From an uncultured Vicinamibacteraceae bacterium (lineage in GTDB: Bacteria > Acidobacteriota > Vicinamibacteria > Vicinamibacterales > UBA8438): 64,000 bases of DNA. The position numbers and the translations under genes are program-made. Below, in pieces: positions 11,207 through 19,532 of the stretch (the stretch's first letter is position 1; each line of letters begins with the position of its first letter). Location: the NCBI GenBank assembly GCA_964636705.1, contig CAZWUJ010000003.1:128873-192872 (forward strand), written 5' to 3'. The notes under the pieces are model-generated. The model was not told the origin of the DNA, did no database searches, and saw only the letters and a program-made list of their open reading frames with translations.

Positions 11207-12833
11207 CGAAAGTCACCTTGTTGATCTCGTGGAGGGTCGTGTGGCCCGCTAGCACCTGTTCGACCGCTGACTCGCGCAGGAACCGCATTCCACTGGCATG
11301 GGCTGCCGCCTTGATATCCGATGCCGGCCGCCTTTCCAGAATCATCTCGCGCAACTCGTCAGTCAAATCCAAGAGCTCACCAATCGCCCGCCGGCCCCGA
11401 TACCCCGTCCCCCCACACTCGATGCAGCCTACTCCCTCGTACAGCGTGTGCCCGGCAGCCATGGCCGGCTCGATCGCCGACTCACCAAGCGCCGCTTCGG
11501 AAACGCTCGCCGGCCGACGGCAATCGCGGCACAGGGTTCGCACGAGGCGCTGCGCGAGCACGCAGTTGAGCGACGAAACGAACTGATACGGCTCGACACC
11601 CATGTTGAGAAAGCGGCCGAGAACGTCGATCACGTTGTTCGCATGCACGGTGGTAAAGACGAGATGCCCCGTGAGAGCCGACTGAATCGCGATTTGCGCC
11701 GTCTCCGGGTCGCGGATTTCGCCCACCATGATCTTGTCCGGGTCGTGCCGCAGGATTGAGCGCAACCCGCGCGCAAAGGTCAATCCCTTCCGCTCGTTGA
11801 TCGGGATCTGGGTAATCCCCTTCAACTGATATTCGACGGGATCTTCGATCGTAACGATCTTGTCCTCCGGCGAGGCGATCTCGGAAAGCGCTGCATACAA
11901 CGTTGTCGTCTTGCCGCTGCCGGTCGGGCCGGTCACGAGCACCATGCCGTACGGCTCCGCAATGGCGCGGCGAAAACGCCGGAGCAGGTCCTCCCGAAAA
12001 CCGAGAATGTCGAGACGCAACTCACGGAACTGCTCGCTGATGGACGTCTTGTCGAGAATACGGATCACCGCGTGCTCGCCATGAATACTCGGCATGATCG
12101 AGACCCGGAAGTCGATCGTCTTGCCGGGCATCTTCAGCTTGAATCGTCCATCCTGGGGTACGCGCTTCTCCGCTATGTCGAGCTCGGCCATCACCTTGAT
12201 CCGGGACAGAACCGCACCATGGAACTGCCGGTCTATGGGCCGCATCGCCGACTGAAGAACGCCATCGATCCGGTACTTGACATGCACCGCGTCGTCCTGC
12301 GTCTCCACGTGGATGTCGCTCGCGCGGCGCTGAATGGCCGTGTAGATGATCGAGTCCACCAGCTTGATGACCGGCGAGAGGTCACTGGTCAGCCTCTCGA
12401 CCGTAAGCGTCTCGTCGCCCCCGTCGTCTTCGCGCAGGAGCTGCAGGCCGAAACTCTCGGTCGCCTCATCGAGAACGCGCTGTGAACTCTCGCTCCTTGC
12501 CAGAATGGCGTCGATCGCCGAGGGCGTGCCAACCGTGACGGTAACCGGCGTTCCAAGCAGGAGCGACAACTCGTCGATCATCGGCAGGTCGGTCGGATCG
12601 GATACGACGACCTCTAGCGCTTCACCGTCGCGGCGGCGTGGGACGAACCGGTAGCGAAGCATGAGGTCTGCCGGGATCGAGCGGAGCAATTCCGGGTCGA
12701 TGACGAATGAACCCATGTCGACGTAGTCGAGCCGGTAGCGCTCGGCGAGCTCGCGCGCGCGCTCTTCCTCGACCGCCGCTTGAAGGGTAGCCTTCTGCGG
12801 GTCGCCTCTCGCGACGGTATCCGTGTCGGCCAT
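11199..12833 (-). CDS. GspE/PilB-family secretion ATPase
   Basis: It has Walker A (GPTGSGKTTTLYAAL), Asp/His boxes and a tetracysteine motif (CRDC...CIECGGTG). Confidence 0.9.
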   Translation of the reverse strand: MADTDTVARGDPQKATLQAAVEEERARELAERYRLDYVDMGSFVIDPELLRSIPADLMLRYRFVPRRRDGEALEVVVSDPTDLPMIDELSLLLGTPVTVTVGTPSAIDAILARSESSQRVLDEATESFGLQLLREDDGGDETLTVERLTSDLSPVIKLVDSIIYTAIQRRASDIHVETQDDAVHVKYRIDGVLQSAMRPIDRQFHGAVLSRIKVMAELDIAEKRVPQDGRFKLKMPGKTIDFRVSIMPSIHGEHAVIRILDKTSISEQFRELRLDILGFREDLLRRFRRAIAEPYGMVLVTGPTGSGKTTTLYAALSEIASPEDKIVTIEDPVEYQLKGITQIPINERKGLTFARGLRSILRHDPDKIMVGEIRDPETAQIAIQSALTGHLVFTTVHANNVIDVLGRFLNMGVEPYQFVSSLNCVLAQRLVRTLCRDCRRPASVSEAALGESAIEPAMAAGHTLYEGVGCIECGGTGYRGRRAIGELLDLTDELREMILERRPASDIKAAAHASGMRFLRESAVEQVLAGHTTLHEINKVTFVA

Positions 12834-14059
12834 CAGACAATCGTCCCCAACTGCAGCAGGGGCATGTACAGCGCCAGCAGCAGACCGGCGATCACGATCC
12901 CCATCACGACCAGCAGCAGCGGCTCGACAAGGGTAAGGAATCGGGCGAGTGTCGTCTCGATCTCCTCGTCGAAGAAGTCGGCCACGGCATTCAACATTTC
13001 GGCCAGCGCACCGGTTGACTCCCCCACTTCCACCATTTCGACGGCCACGGAGGGAAACGCCCCACCCTTGTCCATCGACGCAGCGAGCGGCTGACCTGCC
13101 CTGACCTCGTTCGCCACCCCTTCAAGCTGTCTCGCGACATGACGATTGCCCACCGCACCTGCCGTCACGTCAAGCGCCTGCACCAACGGGATTCCGCCGC
13201 CGAGGAGCGTCGACAGCGTCCGGGCCATCTGGGACGTCGCGAATTTCGTCGCCACGCCGCCGGCAAACGGAATGCGGAGAAGCAACCGATCAAGCAGTGC
13301 GCCCCGCTCCGGTTGCCGCGACCATGCCCAGGCGACTGCCGCTGTACCTGCGCCCGCCAAAAGAATCAGCCAGCCATAGCTCACGGCAATGGTCGATAGG
13401 TTCGTCAGTACGCGCGTCGCGAGGGGCAAGGTCGCACCCATTCCCTCGTAGAAGCTGGCGAACTCCGGGACGACGCGCAGTATGATGATCGCTACCACAG
13501 CGGCAGAAAGCGCCAGGAGGATCGCCGGGTAGATGAGCGCGGATATCGTGCGCCGCCGCACGCCGCTGATCGTGCGCGCGTAGCTCACGTAGCGCCGTAG
13601 TGTCGCTTCGAGACTGCCGCTCTGCTCACCGGCAAGCAGGGAGGCCGCATATACCCCCGGTACGACGTCGCCGTGGCTCGCGAAGGCCTCCGAGAGCGCG
13701 ACGCCTCCTCGCACCTGCTCGTACACGTCGTCCAGAATCGCCTTGAGGACCGGCGCATCGATCCGTCGGCGCAGGATGTCGAGCGACTGGACCAGCGGCA
13801 TCCCCGCCCCGAGCAGAACCGCCAATTCCTGATTGAAGACGGTGAACTCACGCGTGCCGAGCCGCCGGCCCAGGAAACCGGGACGGCGCCCCGCACGGAG
13901 CACTTGCGCCGGCAGACCGAGAACACCGGTCCGGCGCATCGAAAAGACGTACAGTCCTTCCTGTTCTAGATCGGTACGGAGTCGCGCCTCGCTGTCGGCA
14001 GCGCAGACCCGTTCGAGGATCCTGCCGTCCGCGGTTCCCAGTCGGCAACGGAATTCCAT
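12833..14059 (-). CDS. GspF/PilC-family inner-membrane platform protein
   Basis: Within ORF 12833..14143. I place the start at MEFRCRLG. The protein is a duplicated T2SF domain. There is a TGATG overlap with the ATPase start. Confidence 0.85.
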   Translation of the reverse strand: MEFRCRLGTADGRILERVCAADSEARLRTDLEQEGLYVFSMRRTGVLGLPAQVLRAGRRPGFLGRRLGTREFTVFNQELAVLLGAGMPLVQSLDILRRRIDAPVLKAILDDVYEQVRGGVALSEAFASHGDVVPGVYAASLLAGEQSGSLEATLRRYVSYARTISGVRRRTISALIYPAILLALSAAVVAIIILRVVPEFASFYEGMGATLPLATRVLTNLSTIAVSYGWLILLAGAGTAAVAWAWSRQPERGALLDRLLLRIPFAGGVATKFATSQMARTLSTLLGGGIPLVQALDVTAGAVGNRHVARQLEGVANEVRAGQPLAASMDKGGAFPSVAVEMVEVGESTGALAEMLNAVADFFDEEIETTLARFLTLVEPLLLVVMGIVIAGLLLALYMPLLQLGTIV

Positions 14060-14954: not shown

Positions 14955-15854
14955 CTAAAGGGGTTCGACGTAAACGCTCAGAACCCGCACGCCGAGCTCG
15001 CGGCTATCCTCCCCCGAACCCAACTCGGCGGGGACGAACGTCTGATCAACGACCAGTTCCATCCGCACCACGTCGTCGGATCCCAGCTCGGCCGCCGTAA
15101 CCGTCCGGTCAATCTCCACGGGTTCCGACGTTTCGAGAGACAGCTCCTCCAGAACCTGCTCACCTATTCGGAGACTGAACTGTTGAGGCGTCTCGAACAC
15201 GTTGGGCTGTCCCGCTACCTCCAGCATCACGCGCGCGTCGCCCCGGGGATTCTGGAAAGACACGACACCCTGACCGTCGGTCCAGCGCCAGAAGGTCTCG
15301 TTGTCCGCCTGCACCTCAACGCCGTGCCAGCCCTCCTCGTACACGAGGAAGCTGCTCTCGTGCTGCGGGGTGAACGTGAGGGACGCGACGCGATACGCAT
15401 TCTGGCCGATATGTTCACCCGCGAGCGCCAACCGCTCGCCGGTCGACGGCAGGTACAGACCAACGGCAACATCTCCTTCCCCGATATAGGGATAGAGAGG
15501 AACCATGACGCGGCGCGAATACTCGATGGTCTGCCCTGGCTCCCACTCGCTCGTCGGCGTCGGGGGCTGGTGATCGTCATTCCAGATCGGCTCGCCGTTG
15601 TTGTCGAGCACATGAACGAAGACCATGTAGTCATCGGTCATCGGCGCGAGGTCCGGCGATGCCCCGAAACGAAGCGTCATCTCGATCGGTCCGCCAATCG
15701 GAACGCTCATGCGGTCCAGCCGCATGTTGACCGTGGCAACCTGCGGACCCGCCGTACCGTTGCCGCAGCCAGCAGTCAGGAGCAACGCTGCCAGCGCCGG
15801 AAAGACGGCGCCAATGGCCACGACTCGCACGGTGCTGGGGTGTTGGTTTCGCAT
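14955..15854 (-). CDS. lipoprotein of unknown function at the head of the secretion operon
   Basis: The start at MRNQHPS gives a signal peptide with the lipobox LLTAGC. I recognise no motif in the mature part. Confidence 0.6.
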
Positions 15855-15871
15855 CAGCCGGTCAGTGTACC

Positions 15872-16171
15872 ATGAGCCGCATGACGCTGGAAGCCCTCGG
15901 GATGATTGAAACCAAGGGGCTCGTGGGCTCGATCGAGGCAGCCGACGCGATGGTGAAGGCGGCAAACGTCATCCTCATCGGCAAGGAGTACATCGGCGCC
16001 GGCTACGTCACCGTCATGGTGCGGGGAGACGTCGGCGCGGTGAAAGCGGCCACGGACGCCGGAGCGGCGGCAGCGCGGCGCGTCGGTGAACTGATTTCGG
16101 TCCATGTCATTCCCCGGCCGCACACCGAGGTGGAGAGGATCCTCCCGCAGGTGAACGCGGCCACCCGATAG
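15872..16171 (+). CDS. bacterial microcompartment shell protein, BMC-H (Pfam00936 type)
   Basis: [27 protein letters not shown]...[21 protein letters not shown] is the canonical PduA/EutM/CcmK-type hexamer sequence. The start could instead be 15881. Confidence 0.9.
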
Positions 16172-16174
16172 CCG

Positions 16175-17911
16175 GTGTCTGCTTCGCCCGACTCCGGCCG
16201 GTCCCCGGAGCACCCTACCCGCGCCGTGGTCGACGCACGGCGCCTGGCCGAGCGTGCCTACGACACACTTCCCCAACTGGCCGAGCTGACGCAGGATCAG
16301 GTTGACGCCATTGTTGACGGGATGGCAACGGCGGCGGCGGGCGAGGCGGAAGCCCTGGCCGCGGCGGCCGTCGCGGAGACCGGTTACGGAGTCGTCGGCG
16401 ACAAGGTCCAGAAGAATCTCTTTGCGGCAAGAGACATCCACCGGTTCATCCGTCCCATGCGCACGGTCGGCGTGATCCGCCGCCTGGAGGGGCAACGGGT
16501 CGTGGAAATCGCCGAACCGTTCGGCGTGGTAGCTGCCATCGTTCCTTCTACGAATCCAACATCGACGGCGATCTACAAGCTGTTGATCGCGCTGAAGGCA
16601 CGTTGCCCAATCGTCCTCAGCCCACACCCCGCGGCGGTCAGTTGCGTCAACCGAACCGCCGCGCTCATGGAACGCGCGGCCCGCGACGCCGGCATGCCTG
16701 ATGGCGCTATCGCTTGTCTGTCGGAAATATCCCTGGAAGCGACGCAGGCGTTGATGACCCACCGCCGAGTTGCCGTAATCCTCGCCACCGGCGGGATGGG
16801 TCTGGTGCGTGCGGCGTACTCCGCCGGCAAGCCGGCCTACGGCGTCGGTCCGGGCAACGCTCCCGCGTACATTGAACGGACCGCCGACGTCGACAAGGCG
16901 GTTGCCGACATTGTTACCGGCAAGACGTTCGACAACGGCCTGCTCTGTTCGTCGGAGAATGCAGTTGTCGTTGACGCCGCTGTCGACGAGAAGGTTCGGC
17001 GTGCCTTCGAAGCCGAGGGAGCCTGTTTCCTGAAGCCCCGAGAAGCGTCGGCGCTTGCGCACCTGCTGGTGACGCCGCAACGCCTGCCCAATCCGGCTTG
17101 CGTCGGCCGGGACGCCGTCACAATCGCGCGGCAGGCGGGCTTGAACGTGCCGCGCGGAACCCGAGTGTTGATTGCGCCGCTCGACGGCGTCGGGCGGGAC
17201 TACCCGCTCTCGATCGAGAAGCTCTGCCCGGTGCTCGCCTACTACGTGGTCGACGACTGGCGTGCGGGTTGCGAGCGCTGCAAGGAAATCCTGCGCTACG
17301 GCGGGATGGGCCACACGATGGCGATTCACTCGCGCGACGAGAAGGTAATCCTGGAGTTCGGCCTCAAGAAACCCGCGTTCCGAATCGTCGTGAATACGCC
17401 CACCACACTTGGATCGATCGGGATGACGACGGGCCTCGATCCATCCATGACCCTTGGCTGCGGCGGCTGGGGTGGGAACATCACTTCCGACAACATCTCC
17501 CCGCGGCACCTGCTGAACGTCAAGCGCCTGGCGTACGAAACGCGTCCCGTGCCGCGCCAGGCCAAACCAAAGGGCGGGGGGGCGGCGGCGCCTGGCGCCG
17601 TTGCGCCGCCAATGGCCACTGCTCCGGCCGACGCCGCAACCCGCCTGGAGACGCGCCAGCCCGGGCTCGATGCCGGGTTGGTCGCAGCTCGGGTCGGCGC
17701 CTTCCTGACCACGCGCGAGCGTGCGCGATCCGCCGGCACAACGGTCACGCCCCCGTCACCGGAGAGCGAGGCGGCGCCGTTCGTCTGCGAGGACGATGTC
17801 CGTGCCGCGCTGCGTGACACTCGAAGGATCGTTGTCGGTCCCCGCACCATCATCACGCCGGCCGCGCGCGATCTGGCGGAGCGTCACGGCGTCTTTGTCG
17901 AAGCGGGCTAG
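16175..17911 (+). CDS. CoA-acylating aldehyde dehydrogenase (EutE/PduP/SucD-like) with a 119-aa C-terminal extension
   Basis: IVPSTNPTST, the catalytic Cys in NGLLCSSEN, and GMGHTMAIHS are present. A GTG start lies 3 nt after the BMC-H stop. The tail is a P/A/G linker, an amphipathic helix, a second linker and a 43-aa terminal module. Confidence 0.85.
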   Translation: MSASPDSGRSPEHPTRAVVDARRLAERAYDTLPQLAELTQDQVDAIVDGMATAAAGEAEALAAAAVAETGYGVVGDKVQKNLFAARDIHRFIRPMRTVGVIRRLEGQRVVEIAEPFGVVAAIVPSTNPTSTAIYKLLIALKARCPIVLSPHPAAVSCVNRTAALMERAARDAGMPDGAIACLSEISLEATQALMTHRRVAVILATGGMGLVRAAYSAGKPAYGVGPGNAPAYIERTADVDKAVADIVTGKTFDNGLLCSSENAVVVDAAVDEKVRRAFEAEGACFLKPREASALAHLLVTPQRLPNPACVGRDAVTIARQAGLNVPRGTRVLIAPLDGVGRDYPLSIEKLCPVLAYYVVDDWRAGCERCKEILRYGGMGHTMAIHSRDEKVILEFGLKKPAFRIVVNTPTTLGSIGMTTGLDPSMTLGCGGWGGNITSDNISPRHLLNVKRLAYETRPVPRQAKPKGGGAAAPGAVAPPMATAPADAATRLETRQPGLDAGLVAARVGAFLTTRERARSAGTTVTPPSPESEAAPFVCEDDVRAALRDTRRIVVGPRTIITPAARDLAERHGVFVEAG

Positions 17912-17965
17912 AGCCCGACCACGCCTATCCGACAGCCTGCACCGTTCCACGGCGCAGCCTGCCAG
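17908..17965 (+). repeat. palindromic intergenic repeat element, copy B (short form)
   Basis: Sequence: CTAGAGCCCGACC-AC-GCCTATCCGACAGCCTGCACCGTTCCACGGCGCAGCCTGCCAG. It lacks the roughly 35-nt central segment found in copies A, C and D. Its first CTAG contains the TAG stop of the aldehyde dehydrogenase. Confidence 0.8.
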
Positions 17966-18020
17966 TTCGCAACCTGCATCCGCCGCCGCATGCGGAACGG
18001 AACTTGCACGTCTGCAAGCC

Positions 18021-19532
18021 ATGCTCGCCACGCTCCGCTCTGCCGCCGTCTTCGGCATCACCGCCACTCCGATCGACATCCAGGTGGACGTCTCCGACGG
18101 CGGACTGCCCACCTTCGCCATCGTCGGTCTGCCTGACTCCACTGTCCGAGAGAGCCGCGAGCGCATCCGGAGCGCGCTCGAGAACGCAGGCTACCGGTTC
18201 CCGCTCCGCCGGATCATCGTCAATCTGGCCCCTGCCGACACACCGAAGAGCGGCGCCTCGTTCGACTTGCCGATTGCCCTCGGCCTCCTGACCGCGATCA
18301 GCGTCCTCCGGCCAACGGTGTTCGAGAAGGCACTGGTTATTGGGGAACTCTCCCTGGACGGCCGCGTGCAGGCCTCCCGTGGGGTGCTGCCAGTGGCTCT
18401 GCTCGCGGCTCGCCTCGGCCAAAGGCTGGTGCTGCCGGCCATCAACGTTCCGGAGGGCCGGATCGTCGACAACGTCGAGTTGGTACCTGCCAGGACCCTG
18501 CTGCAGGTCATGCAGGATCTTCAGAACGACACCCGGACCGCGGGTCCGGCGCCGGACCCCGCGCCGCTCCGCCGTAACGACTCCGCGCTCGATCTCTCGG
18601 ACGTTCGCGGGCAGGTGGGCGCACGACGCGCGGCGGAGATCGCCGCCTCCGGCCGGCACAACCTGCTGATGGTCGGACCGCCCGGCGCCGGCAAGACACT
18701 GATCGCACGGCGCATCCCCGGGCTGCTGCCCCCTCCCACGTTCGCAGAAGCAAGCGCCTCCACGTCAGTCCATTCGGTTGCCGGTCTGCTGGATACTTCG
18801 GCTGGCCTGTTAGCGGAACGGCCGTTCCGCGCGCCGCACCATACCGCGTCGGTGGCGGCGCTCACTGGCGGCGGCCGTGATCCCCGACCGGGCGAAATCA
18901 GCCTCGCCCACGGCGGCGTCCTCTTCCTTGACGAGATCGTCGAGTTCGATCGGCGCGTTCTCGAAGCGCTGCGCGAACCTCTTGAGGAGGGCACGGTGCG
19001 CATCGCCCGCGCCTTGCGCACGGTTCAGTTCCCCGCTCGGTTTCTCCTCGTAGGCGCGATGAACCCCTGTCCGTGCGGATATGCCGGCGAGCCGTCCGGG
19101 CGCTGCCCATGCACGCCAACAGAGGTGCGGCACTATCGTGACCGCATCTCGGGACCGCTGCGCGACCGGATCGACCTGACGGTTCAGGTGGATCCGGTGC
19201 CGTTCGCAGCGTTCGCCCGCGGTGCCGCAGCTGAATCCTCCGCCGCCGTGCGTGAGCGGGTCGCTCGCGCGCGGGAACCACAGGCGGCACGGGACTCGAC
19301 CGGGACGGGACGGACGAACGCCGACCTGGCGGGCGCCGCACTGAAGCGGCACTGCGCACTTGATCCTGCGAGCCTTGCCCTGATCGAGCGGGCCATGAAC
19401 CGGTTGGGGCTGACCGGACGGAGCTTCGATCGGGTGCGTCGTGTCGCCCGGACTATTGCCGACCTTGACGGCGCCGACAGAATCCGCCGTTCCCACGTTG
19501 TGGAGGCCCTGCACTACCGTGGCATCGACTGA
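18021..19532 (+). CDS. comM: YifB/ComM-family Mg-chelatase-like ATPase
   Basis: The in-frame ATG at 18021 (MLATLRSAAVFGI) lies inside track ORF 17721..19532. It has a Lon-like N-domain, Walker A (GPPGAGKT) and a C-terminal Mg-chelatase subunit-like region. Confidence 0.85.
   Translation: MLATLRSAAVFGITATPIDIQVDVSDGGLPTFAIVGLPDSTVRESRERIRSALENAGYRFPLRRIIVNLAPADTPKSGASFDLPIALGLLTAISVLRPTVFEKALVIGELSLDGRVQASRGVLPVALLAARLGQRLVLPAINVPEGRIVDNVELVPARTLLQVMQDLQNDTRTAGPAPDPAPLRRNDSALDLSDVRGQVGARRAAEIAASGRHNLLMVGPPGAGKTLIARRIPGLLPPPTFAEASASTSVHSVAGLLDTSAGLLAERPFRAPHHTASVAALTGGGRDPRPGEISLAHGGVLFLDEIVEFDRRVLEALREPLEEGTVRIARALRTVQFPARFLLVGAMNPCPCGYAGEPSGRCPCTPTEVRHYRDRISGPLRDRIDLTVQVDPVPFAAFARGAAAESSAAVRERVARAREPQAARDSTGTGRTNADLAGAALKRHCALDPASLALIERAMNRLGLTGRSFDRVRRVARTIADLDGADRIRRSHVVEALHYRGID

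Follow-up and report, generated by a model that had tools for sequence, protein, structure and literature searches.

The stretch of DNA described here, called the window in the following, comprises 64,000 nucleotides (G000:C3:128873-192872) and belongs to G000, a 3.83-Mb metagenome-assembled genome of the Vicinamibacterales (Acidobacteriota subdivision 6), which is 96% complete. On its forward strand, two genes lie next to each other, one encoding a shell protein of the BMC-H type of bacterial microcompartments (BMC) and one encoding a coenzyme A (CoA)-acylating aldehyde dehydrogenase (AldDh). The BMC-H gene (15872-16171, +) encodes a protein of 99 amino acids (aa), which matches PF00936 over the full profile (1-75/75, E 1.6e-28). 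This single, complete BMC domain contains the edge lysine within the motif DAMVKAA, the pore loop IGAGY and the PRPH motif (VIPRPH), and its closest NCBIfam scores are those of EutM and CsoS1. The AldDh gene (16175-17911, +; 578 aa) starts with GTG, and only 3 nt separate it from the stop codon of the BMC-H gene. This arrangement had already been described in a first-pass annotation of the window, and the PF00936 and TIGR02518 matches confirm it. The same annotation considered that the BMC-H gene might turn out to be a decayed fragment, which is contradicted by the complete domain with its intact motifs. Both genes are real and intact.

The AldDh is matched by the profile of acetylating acetaldehyde dehydrogenases (TIGR02518, E 8e-165), by that of the AdhE N-domain (E 4.5e-157) as well as by PF00171. 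Its best relatives of solved structure are the acetylating acetaldehyde dehydrogenase 5j78 (E 3e-137) and also 3k9d. The catalytic cysteine, Cys258 (codon 16946-16948, +), is located in the motif NGLLCSSEN, which aligns with the catalytic-site motif of 5j78, and it is invariant in 42/42 orthologues compared. Judged from its sequence, the enzyme is a CoA-acylating aldehyde dehydrogenase of the EutE/PduP/AdhE-N class. In comparison to orthologues of the same genus, the ratio of nonsynonymous to synonymous substitutions (dN/dS) is 0.04-0.17 for the BMC-H gene, a range that leaves out the comparison with the mis-framed slice L009, and 0.12-0.15 for the AldDh gene; these values indicate that purifying selection acts on both window genes.

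Following the catalytic domains, the AldDh carries a C-terminal extension, which was studied in an alignment of 80 tails, with the invariance counts taken from the 42 orthologues, and in an AlphaFold model (mean pLDDT, the predicted local confidence, of 73.5 from a shallow alignment). The extension begins with a Pro/Ala/Gly-rich linker (17564-17671, +; about residues 464-499), which is predicted to be disordered (pLDDT <50 at residues 464-498) and varies in length and sequence among relatives. The linker is followed by a stretch resembling an encapsulation peptide (EP), GLDAGLVAARVGAFLTTR (17672-17728, +; about residues 500-518), which is modeled as a helix. Here, the motif G-I-x-A-x-x-L-A-R-R-I-D-x-F-L is kept in relatives, the consensus being GIAAxxLARRIDxFLASRGY. 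A second variable linker connects this helix to a conserved terminal module of about 45 residues (17774-17908, +; residues 534-578; FVCEDDVR...TIITPAARDL...), in which F536, C538, E539, D541, V542, T561, P562 and A564 are invariant. For this module a beta-alpha-beta-alpha-beta fold is predicted at a pLDDT of 82-90.

Within about 15 kb on either side of the pair, the first-pass annotation had reported no BMC-P, no BMC-T, no PduL-type phosphotransacylase, no alcohol dehydrogenase, no signature lyase or aldolase and no regulator. Six-frame Pfam scans of the whole G000 assembly (PF00936, PF03319 and PF06130) show no further shell gene and no PduL gene in the window; its flanks were not scanned specifically for alcohol dehydrogenases or regulators. 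On the level of the whole genome, PF00936 is present in two genes, the window BMC-H and a second one at C19:34898-35125. Directly beside the latter lie the only two genes with PF03319, the BMC-P domain (C19:35186-35431 and C19:35485-35736). The label "orphan", which the first-pass annotation had given to the gene pair, can therefore not be kept, since contig C19 of G000 carries a main BMC locus with a BMC-H, two BMC-P and an aldolase.

This main locus (G000:C19:33700-36020, corresponding to 11703-14021 of the extracted slice L005) is encoded on one strand with short gaps and is flanked by housekeeping genes, pdxJ upstream and nth, queE and queC downstream; the same setting from pdxJ to nth/queE/queC is observed in relatives. 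It starts with a gene for a PP0621/YHS-like protein of 84 aa (L005 11703-11957), followed by a class II aldolase (L005 11927-12859), which matches PF00596 (Aldolase_II) with an E value of 5e-48 over residues 24-197. The aldolase scores below every NCBIfam subfamily cut-off; the best subfamilies, all far below theirs, are 3-oxo-tetronate-4-phosphate decarboxylase, FucA and ribulose-1-phosphate aldolase. Its C-terminal extension of about 90 aa ends in an amphipathic helix, RELATLVEDAISRL, a putative encapsulation peptide. Next are the main-locus BMC-H (L005 12890-13174; Pfam BMC, E 2.6e-30), to which the window BMC-H is 80% identical, and the two BMC-P genes (L005 13184-13456 and about 13483-13770; EutN_CcmL, E 5e-33 and 1e-23 for the two). 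The last gene encodes a Cys-rich protein of 84 aa (L005 13767-14021) with a helix-like N-terminus, LRSAIDASIRAHLARR, and a C-terminal C-x8-C-x2-C-x2-C motif; homologues occupy the same place in the loci L094 and L095 of relatives. No PduL (PF06130), phosphotransacetylase Pta (PF01515) or acetate kinase (PF00871) gene was found in the whole G000 assembly. For the metabolosome of this genome, no route is recognizable by which CoA would be recycled or substrate-level phosphorylation take place.

The small protein at the start of the main locus is itself conserved. A protein of 84-91 aa is encoded directly upstream of the aldolase in L005 as well as in two loci of relatives (L093 6852-7127 and L095 6632-6889). 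It is hydrophobic at the N-terminus, has a YHS-like end that contains Cys, and is related to the PP0621 family (E 3e-5). In G000 its open reading frame (ORF) and the longest ORF of the aldolase overlap by 31 nt. The published catalogue of BMC loci mentions "proteins without known homologs", among which this protein might be.

This catalogue (Sutter, Melnicki, Schulz, Woyke & Kerfeld, 2021, Nat Commun 12:3809, PMC8217296; main text and Supplementary Data 2) contains 125 loci of a microcompartment type named ACI, for Acidobacteria, which is exclusive to this group and is found mainly in subdivisions 4 and 6. According to the description, the main locus encodes an aldolase (PF00596) that carries a C-terminal EP, a hydroxyacid dehydrogenase (PF00389/PF02826), a BMC-P triplet and one or more BMC-H, and a protein of about 80 aa with an N-terminal EP and conserved C-terminal cysteines also belongs to the system. 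The AldDh is consistently encoded on a satellite locus and has an EP not far from its C-terminus, with a domain of unknown function of about 50 aa after it, and further BMC-H genes are sometimes encoded "with an AldDh". The ACI AldDh is of type I (IPR013357) and groups only with that of the MIC3 type, the adjoining BMC-H belonging to the H_fuchsia or H_royalpurple clade; the nearest counterparts of the aldolase and AldDh of ACI are found in the HO and MIC3 types (PMC8217296). The window AldDh, an IPR013357/TIGR02518-type enzyme with a C-terminal EP, and its BMC-H, whose clade is distinct from that of the main copy, are consistent with these placements in an indirect way only.

The G000 genes agree with this description in many respects. 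The host belongs to Acidobacteria subdivision 6, the AldDh lies apart from the BMC-P locus (contig C3 vs. C19) with a BMC-H encoded beside it, and its extension contains an EP-like helix and a 45-aa module near the C-terminus. Here, the helix at residues 500-518 matches the EP published for the ACI AldDh. On C19, an EP-tailed PF00596 aldolase is joined by a BMC-H, by BMC-P genes next to one another and by a Cys protein of about 80 aa, and a phosphotransacylase is missing. Differences are seen in the number of BMC-P genes, since this genus has two instead of a triplet, in the lack of a hydroxyacid dehydrogenase at the locus, and in the catalogue's protein with three conserved histidines, which was not identified here. 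On the basis of the published description, the window pair is with high probability a satellite locus of an ACI-type metabolosome that has its main locus on C19. The first-pass annotation had left two possibilities, namely that the pair is the satellite of a distant locus or that it forms a minimal assembly of shell and enzyme; the former is upheld by the C19 locus and the published split architecture and the latter is not.

The split is conserved far beyond G000. The 80 best AldDh loci from a collection of species-representative genomes share 60-83% identity with the window AldDh over nearly the full length including the tail, the closest ones 80-83%; according to their titles they stem from Acidobacteriota, mostly Vicinamibacterales, with one exception labelled Acidimicrobiia. 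By a strict count, a BMC-H gene lies directly upstream on the same strand in 70 of these loci. In seven others the end of a BMC-H match likewise lies shortly ahead of the AldDh, the miss being a coordinate artefact of the extrapolated start, and the remaining three contain no upstream DNA.

A set of 31 genomes of the Vicinamibacterales (G000 and 30 relatives) gave the same picture. The main locus, a BMC-P cluster beside a BMC-H, is present in 31/31 genomes, and an AldDh orthologue was found in 29 of the 30 relatives, in at least 27 of them beside a second BMC-H by the coordinates listed. In closed genomes satellite and main locus are 1.8-4 Mb apart (0.69 vs. 2.49 Mb in G002, 1.60 vs. 4.19 Mb in G004 and 5.55 vs. 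1.48 Mb in G008). A BMC-H tree across the order places the satellite and the main copies in two separate clades (support 100/100); the two paralogues are therefore old and separately maintained. Within the genus, for which seven genomes were available (G000 and six others, four of the seven being single-contig), the gene pair is kept in 7/7.

Some genomes deviate from this arrangement. G020 (C129:69-3524) and G025 (C9:233199-236402) contain a variant main locus, in which tandem-domain, BMC-T-like matches lie between the BMC-H and BMC-P genes; in one of the two genomes an AldDh orthologue is missing, and that of the other is only 44% identical. In G027 the AldDh orthologue (C33:192115-193746) is part of an open frame of 1288 aa and the second BMC-H is found on another contig (C101), so that a fusion or a rearranged satellite could be present.

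Several points weigh against the assignment to ACI and what is built on it. Only two BMC-P genes are present in 7/7 genomes of this genus, in comparison to three in 22/24 genomes of other genera; we read this as a loss of the middle paralogue, as identified by similarity, at the level of the genus. In relatives, the BMC-P genes are succeeded by one for a glyoxylate-reductase-like hydroxyacid dehydrogenase (L093 9311-10267 and L094 9268-10209, 61% identical to each other), but in G000 and in G002 of the same genus the interval from the BMC-P genes to nth lacks it. The gene finder used for these loci, which is based on the G+C content at third codon positions, overlooks genes; it served as a map only and was backed by tblastn or Pfam. 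A search elsewhere in G000 recovered only distant paralogues, the best being 40% and 37% identical. Furthermore, the likeness of the terminal AldDh module to EutQ, which is discussed below, is weak (hhalign probability 67%; E 0.015-0.03 with single sequences). Finally, in the literature that could be searched, no experimental work on an ACI compartment came up. Because of this, the assembly of both loci into one shell, the substrate and the role of the tail module are what we infer, in distinction from gene content, orthology, the conserved split and the tail anatomy, which were observed.

With the hydroxyacid dehydrogenase, PduL, Pta and acetate kinase being absent, the enzyme core of the G000 compartment appears to consist of the aldolase and the AldDh only. 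The missing hydroxyacid dehydrogenase, together with only two BMC-P genes, raises the question whether the pair belongs to a different metabolosome type, such as HO, MIC3, FRAG or one resembling PVM, especially since the catalogue places the ACI aldolase and AldDh closest to HO and MIC3 (PMC8217296). Here, however, the host belongs to the Vicinamibacterales, and the syntenic main loci of the relatives, running from pdxJ over the small protein, the aldolase, the BMC-H and the BMC-P cluster to nth, carry the full set of three BMC-P genes and in addition the hydroxyacid dehydrogenase, the small Cys protein or both. Moreover, G000 has no BMC-T, a shell protein that HO and MIC3 typically possess; the PF00936 scan returned two single-domain matches only. 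A different type is therefore highly improbable, and the C19 locus is better described as a reduced ACI locus, because it is orthologous to and syntenic with full ACI loci. Similarity also exists to the fucose/rhamnose systems PVM/GRM5, in which a PF00596 aldolase likewise frees an aldehyde inside the shell that is consumed by an acylating AldDh. In contrast to G000, which lacks PduL, Pta and acetate kinase genome-wide and has an aldolase below the subfamily cut-offs, those systems also have the genes for a phosphotransacylase, an acetate kinase and a lactaldehyde reductase, all within a single locus.

The reduction could also be seen as a sign of decay, with the gene pair as a non-functional leftover of a lost microcompartment. 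That the genus has lost the hydroxyacid dehydrogenase as well as one of its BMC-P genes, and that phosphotransacylase and acetate kinase are missing, would fit to this. On the contrary, neither ORF is disrupted and both match their domains over the full length, the catalytic cysteine and the tail motifs are invariant, dN/dS values lie at 0.04-0.17, and the pair is conserved throughout the genus and across the order, which leaves this explanation next to no probability. An autonomous minimal assembly has slightly more in its favor, although it is very unlikely as well. Here, the window BMC-H alone would form sheets, tubes or a scaffold and carry the AldDh via its tail, independently of C19. The tight and conserved coupling of the two genes with a gap of 3 nt, the ancient separation of the satellite BMC-H as a distinct paralogue and the putative shell-docking module of the AldDh itself are in line with this. 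Nevertheless, a main locus with BMC-P genes and an EP-tagged aldolase is present in G000, and this locus accompanies the order in all 31 genomes. The AldDh furthermore needs a source of aldehyde, for which the C19 aldolase is the only EP-tagged candidate, and the published catalogue counts satellite and main locus as one consolidated locus.

For the ACI satellite, the following mechanism would fit to the gene content. The two BMC-H paralogues may form the facets of one shell, with the BMC-P pentamers forming the vertices. The C19 aldolase would be targeted to the interior via its C-terminal peptide and there cleave a ketose-1-phosphate into dihydroxyacetone phosphate and a short aldehyde, possibly acetaldehyde, lactaldehyde or glycolaldehyde. 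The window AldDh, targeted by the helix near its C-terminus and probably docked to the shell by its EutQ-like module, would trap this aldehyde as acyl-CoA using NAD+ and CoA. Since neither PduL, Pta and acetate kinase nor the hydroxyacid dehydrogenase of the locus is left, the acyl-CoA presumably leaves the shell directly.

Within this scheme, a special focus lies on the terminal module of the AldDh. On the Pfam level nothing significant is found for the AldDh tail (best E3_binding, 0.021, and PDU_like, 0.12), for the tail of the aldolase or for the Cys-rich protein of 84 aa. A search with phmmer against PDB sequences returned dynactin p27 for the AldDh tail, which was dismissed as a chance match (E > 0.3). 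Using 31 representative modules as queries, matches in NCBIfam were restricted to BMC families. Here, the C-terminus of TIGR02536 was matched by 28 modules (best E 9e-5), positions 7-44 of EutQ by 18 (best E 0.015) and the C-terminus of PduM by 17, and hhalign aligned the module with residues 5-42 of E. coli EutQ at an E value of 5e-5. The motif shared with the EutQ N-terminus reads hydrophobic-x-x-D-[IV]-R-x-A ... I-[IV]-T-P-x-A-R-[DE]. For EutQ of the Salmonella Eut BMC it has been shown experimentally that helices H1/H2 (residues 9-41) bind to EutM and EutL of the shell (Sci Adv, 2025, PMC12487888). The module differs in its position, being located C-terminally on an enzyme and after an EP-like helix, and not N-terminally on a cupin or an acetate-kinase protein.

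On these grounds, a shell-docking role of the terminal module is plausible. A wider reading would be that the last 45 or so residues share ancestry with EutQ H1/H2 and with the ends of PduM and TIGR02536 and act as a portable module for docking to shells, that the satellite is a co-inherited docking pair and that the genus runs among the most reduced natural metabolosomes. This combination is possible, but we would rather doubt than accept it at present. If it holds true, the docking pair would consist of a dedicated BMC-H tile and an enzyme that tethers itself to that tile, and the reduced metabolosome would comprise two types of shell hexamers, two types of pentamers, the aldolase and the AldDh and would work without a phosphotransacylase.

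The split architecture, the tailed AldDh and the accompanying BMC-H have been known since 2021 (PMC8217296). The window thus contains an ordinary example of a catalogued system, neither an orphan nor a minimal organelle, and its value as a discovery is small. For annotation, it follows that windows in Acidobacteriota with an apparently orphan pair of BMC-H and AldDh should be read as ACI satellites. Furthermore, the tail data support the idea of a relationship between the "domain of unknown function" of the AldDh and the part of EutQ that binds the shell. The naturally reduced ACI set of this genus, consisting of two BMC-H, two BMC-P, the aldolase, the AldDh and one small Cys protein, could offer a practical minimal system with which to reconstitute this as yet uncharacterized organelle of soil bacteria.

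Upstream of the pair and divergent from it lies a gene for a lipoprotein of 300-336 aa, which matches no Pfam family and which is found in the same divergent arrangement in 74 of the 80 best AldDh loci; past it, genes for an SLT transglycosylase and a T2SS-F protein follow. The longest ORF call for the lipoprotein, starting with TTG at 15965, would run 94 nt into the BMC-H gene. With the likely start at Met38, its ATG (CAT at 15852-15854) is 17 nt away from the ATG of the BMC-H gene (15872), close to the about 18 nt given in the first-pass annotation, and each promoter must therefore be located within the opposite gene. A promoter and terminator scan of 15300-18300 found none and was uninformative at the 65-68% GC of this genome.

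Downstream of the AldDh gene lies comM, a neighbor that the first-pass annotation had also named correctly. BMC-related genes were considered between AldDh and comM in relatives and rejected, since a LysM/SLT-type protein or a glycosyltransferase is encoded at this place. The longest comM ORF of the window (17721-19532, starting with GTG at 17721) overlaps the AldDh gene by 191 nt. Homology with relatives makes the ATG at 18021 (MLATLRSAAV...) the more likely start, which leaves a gap of 109 nt after the AldDh stop codon.

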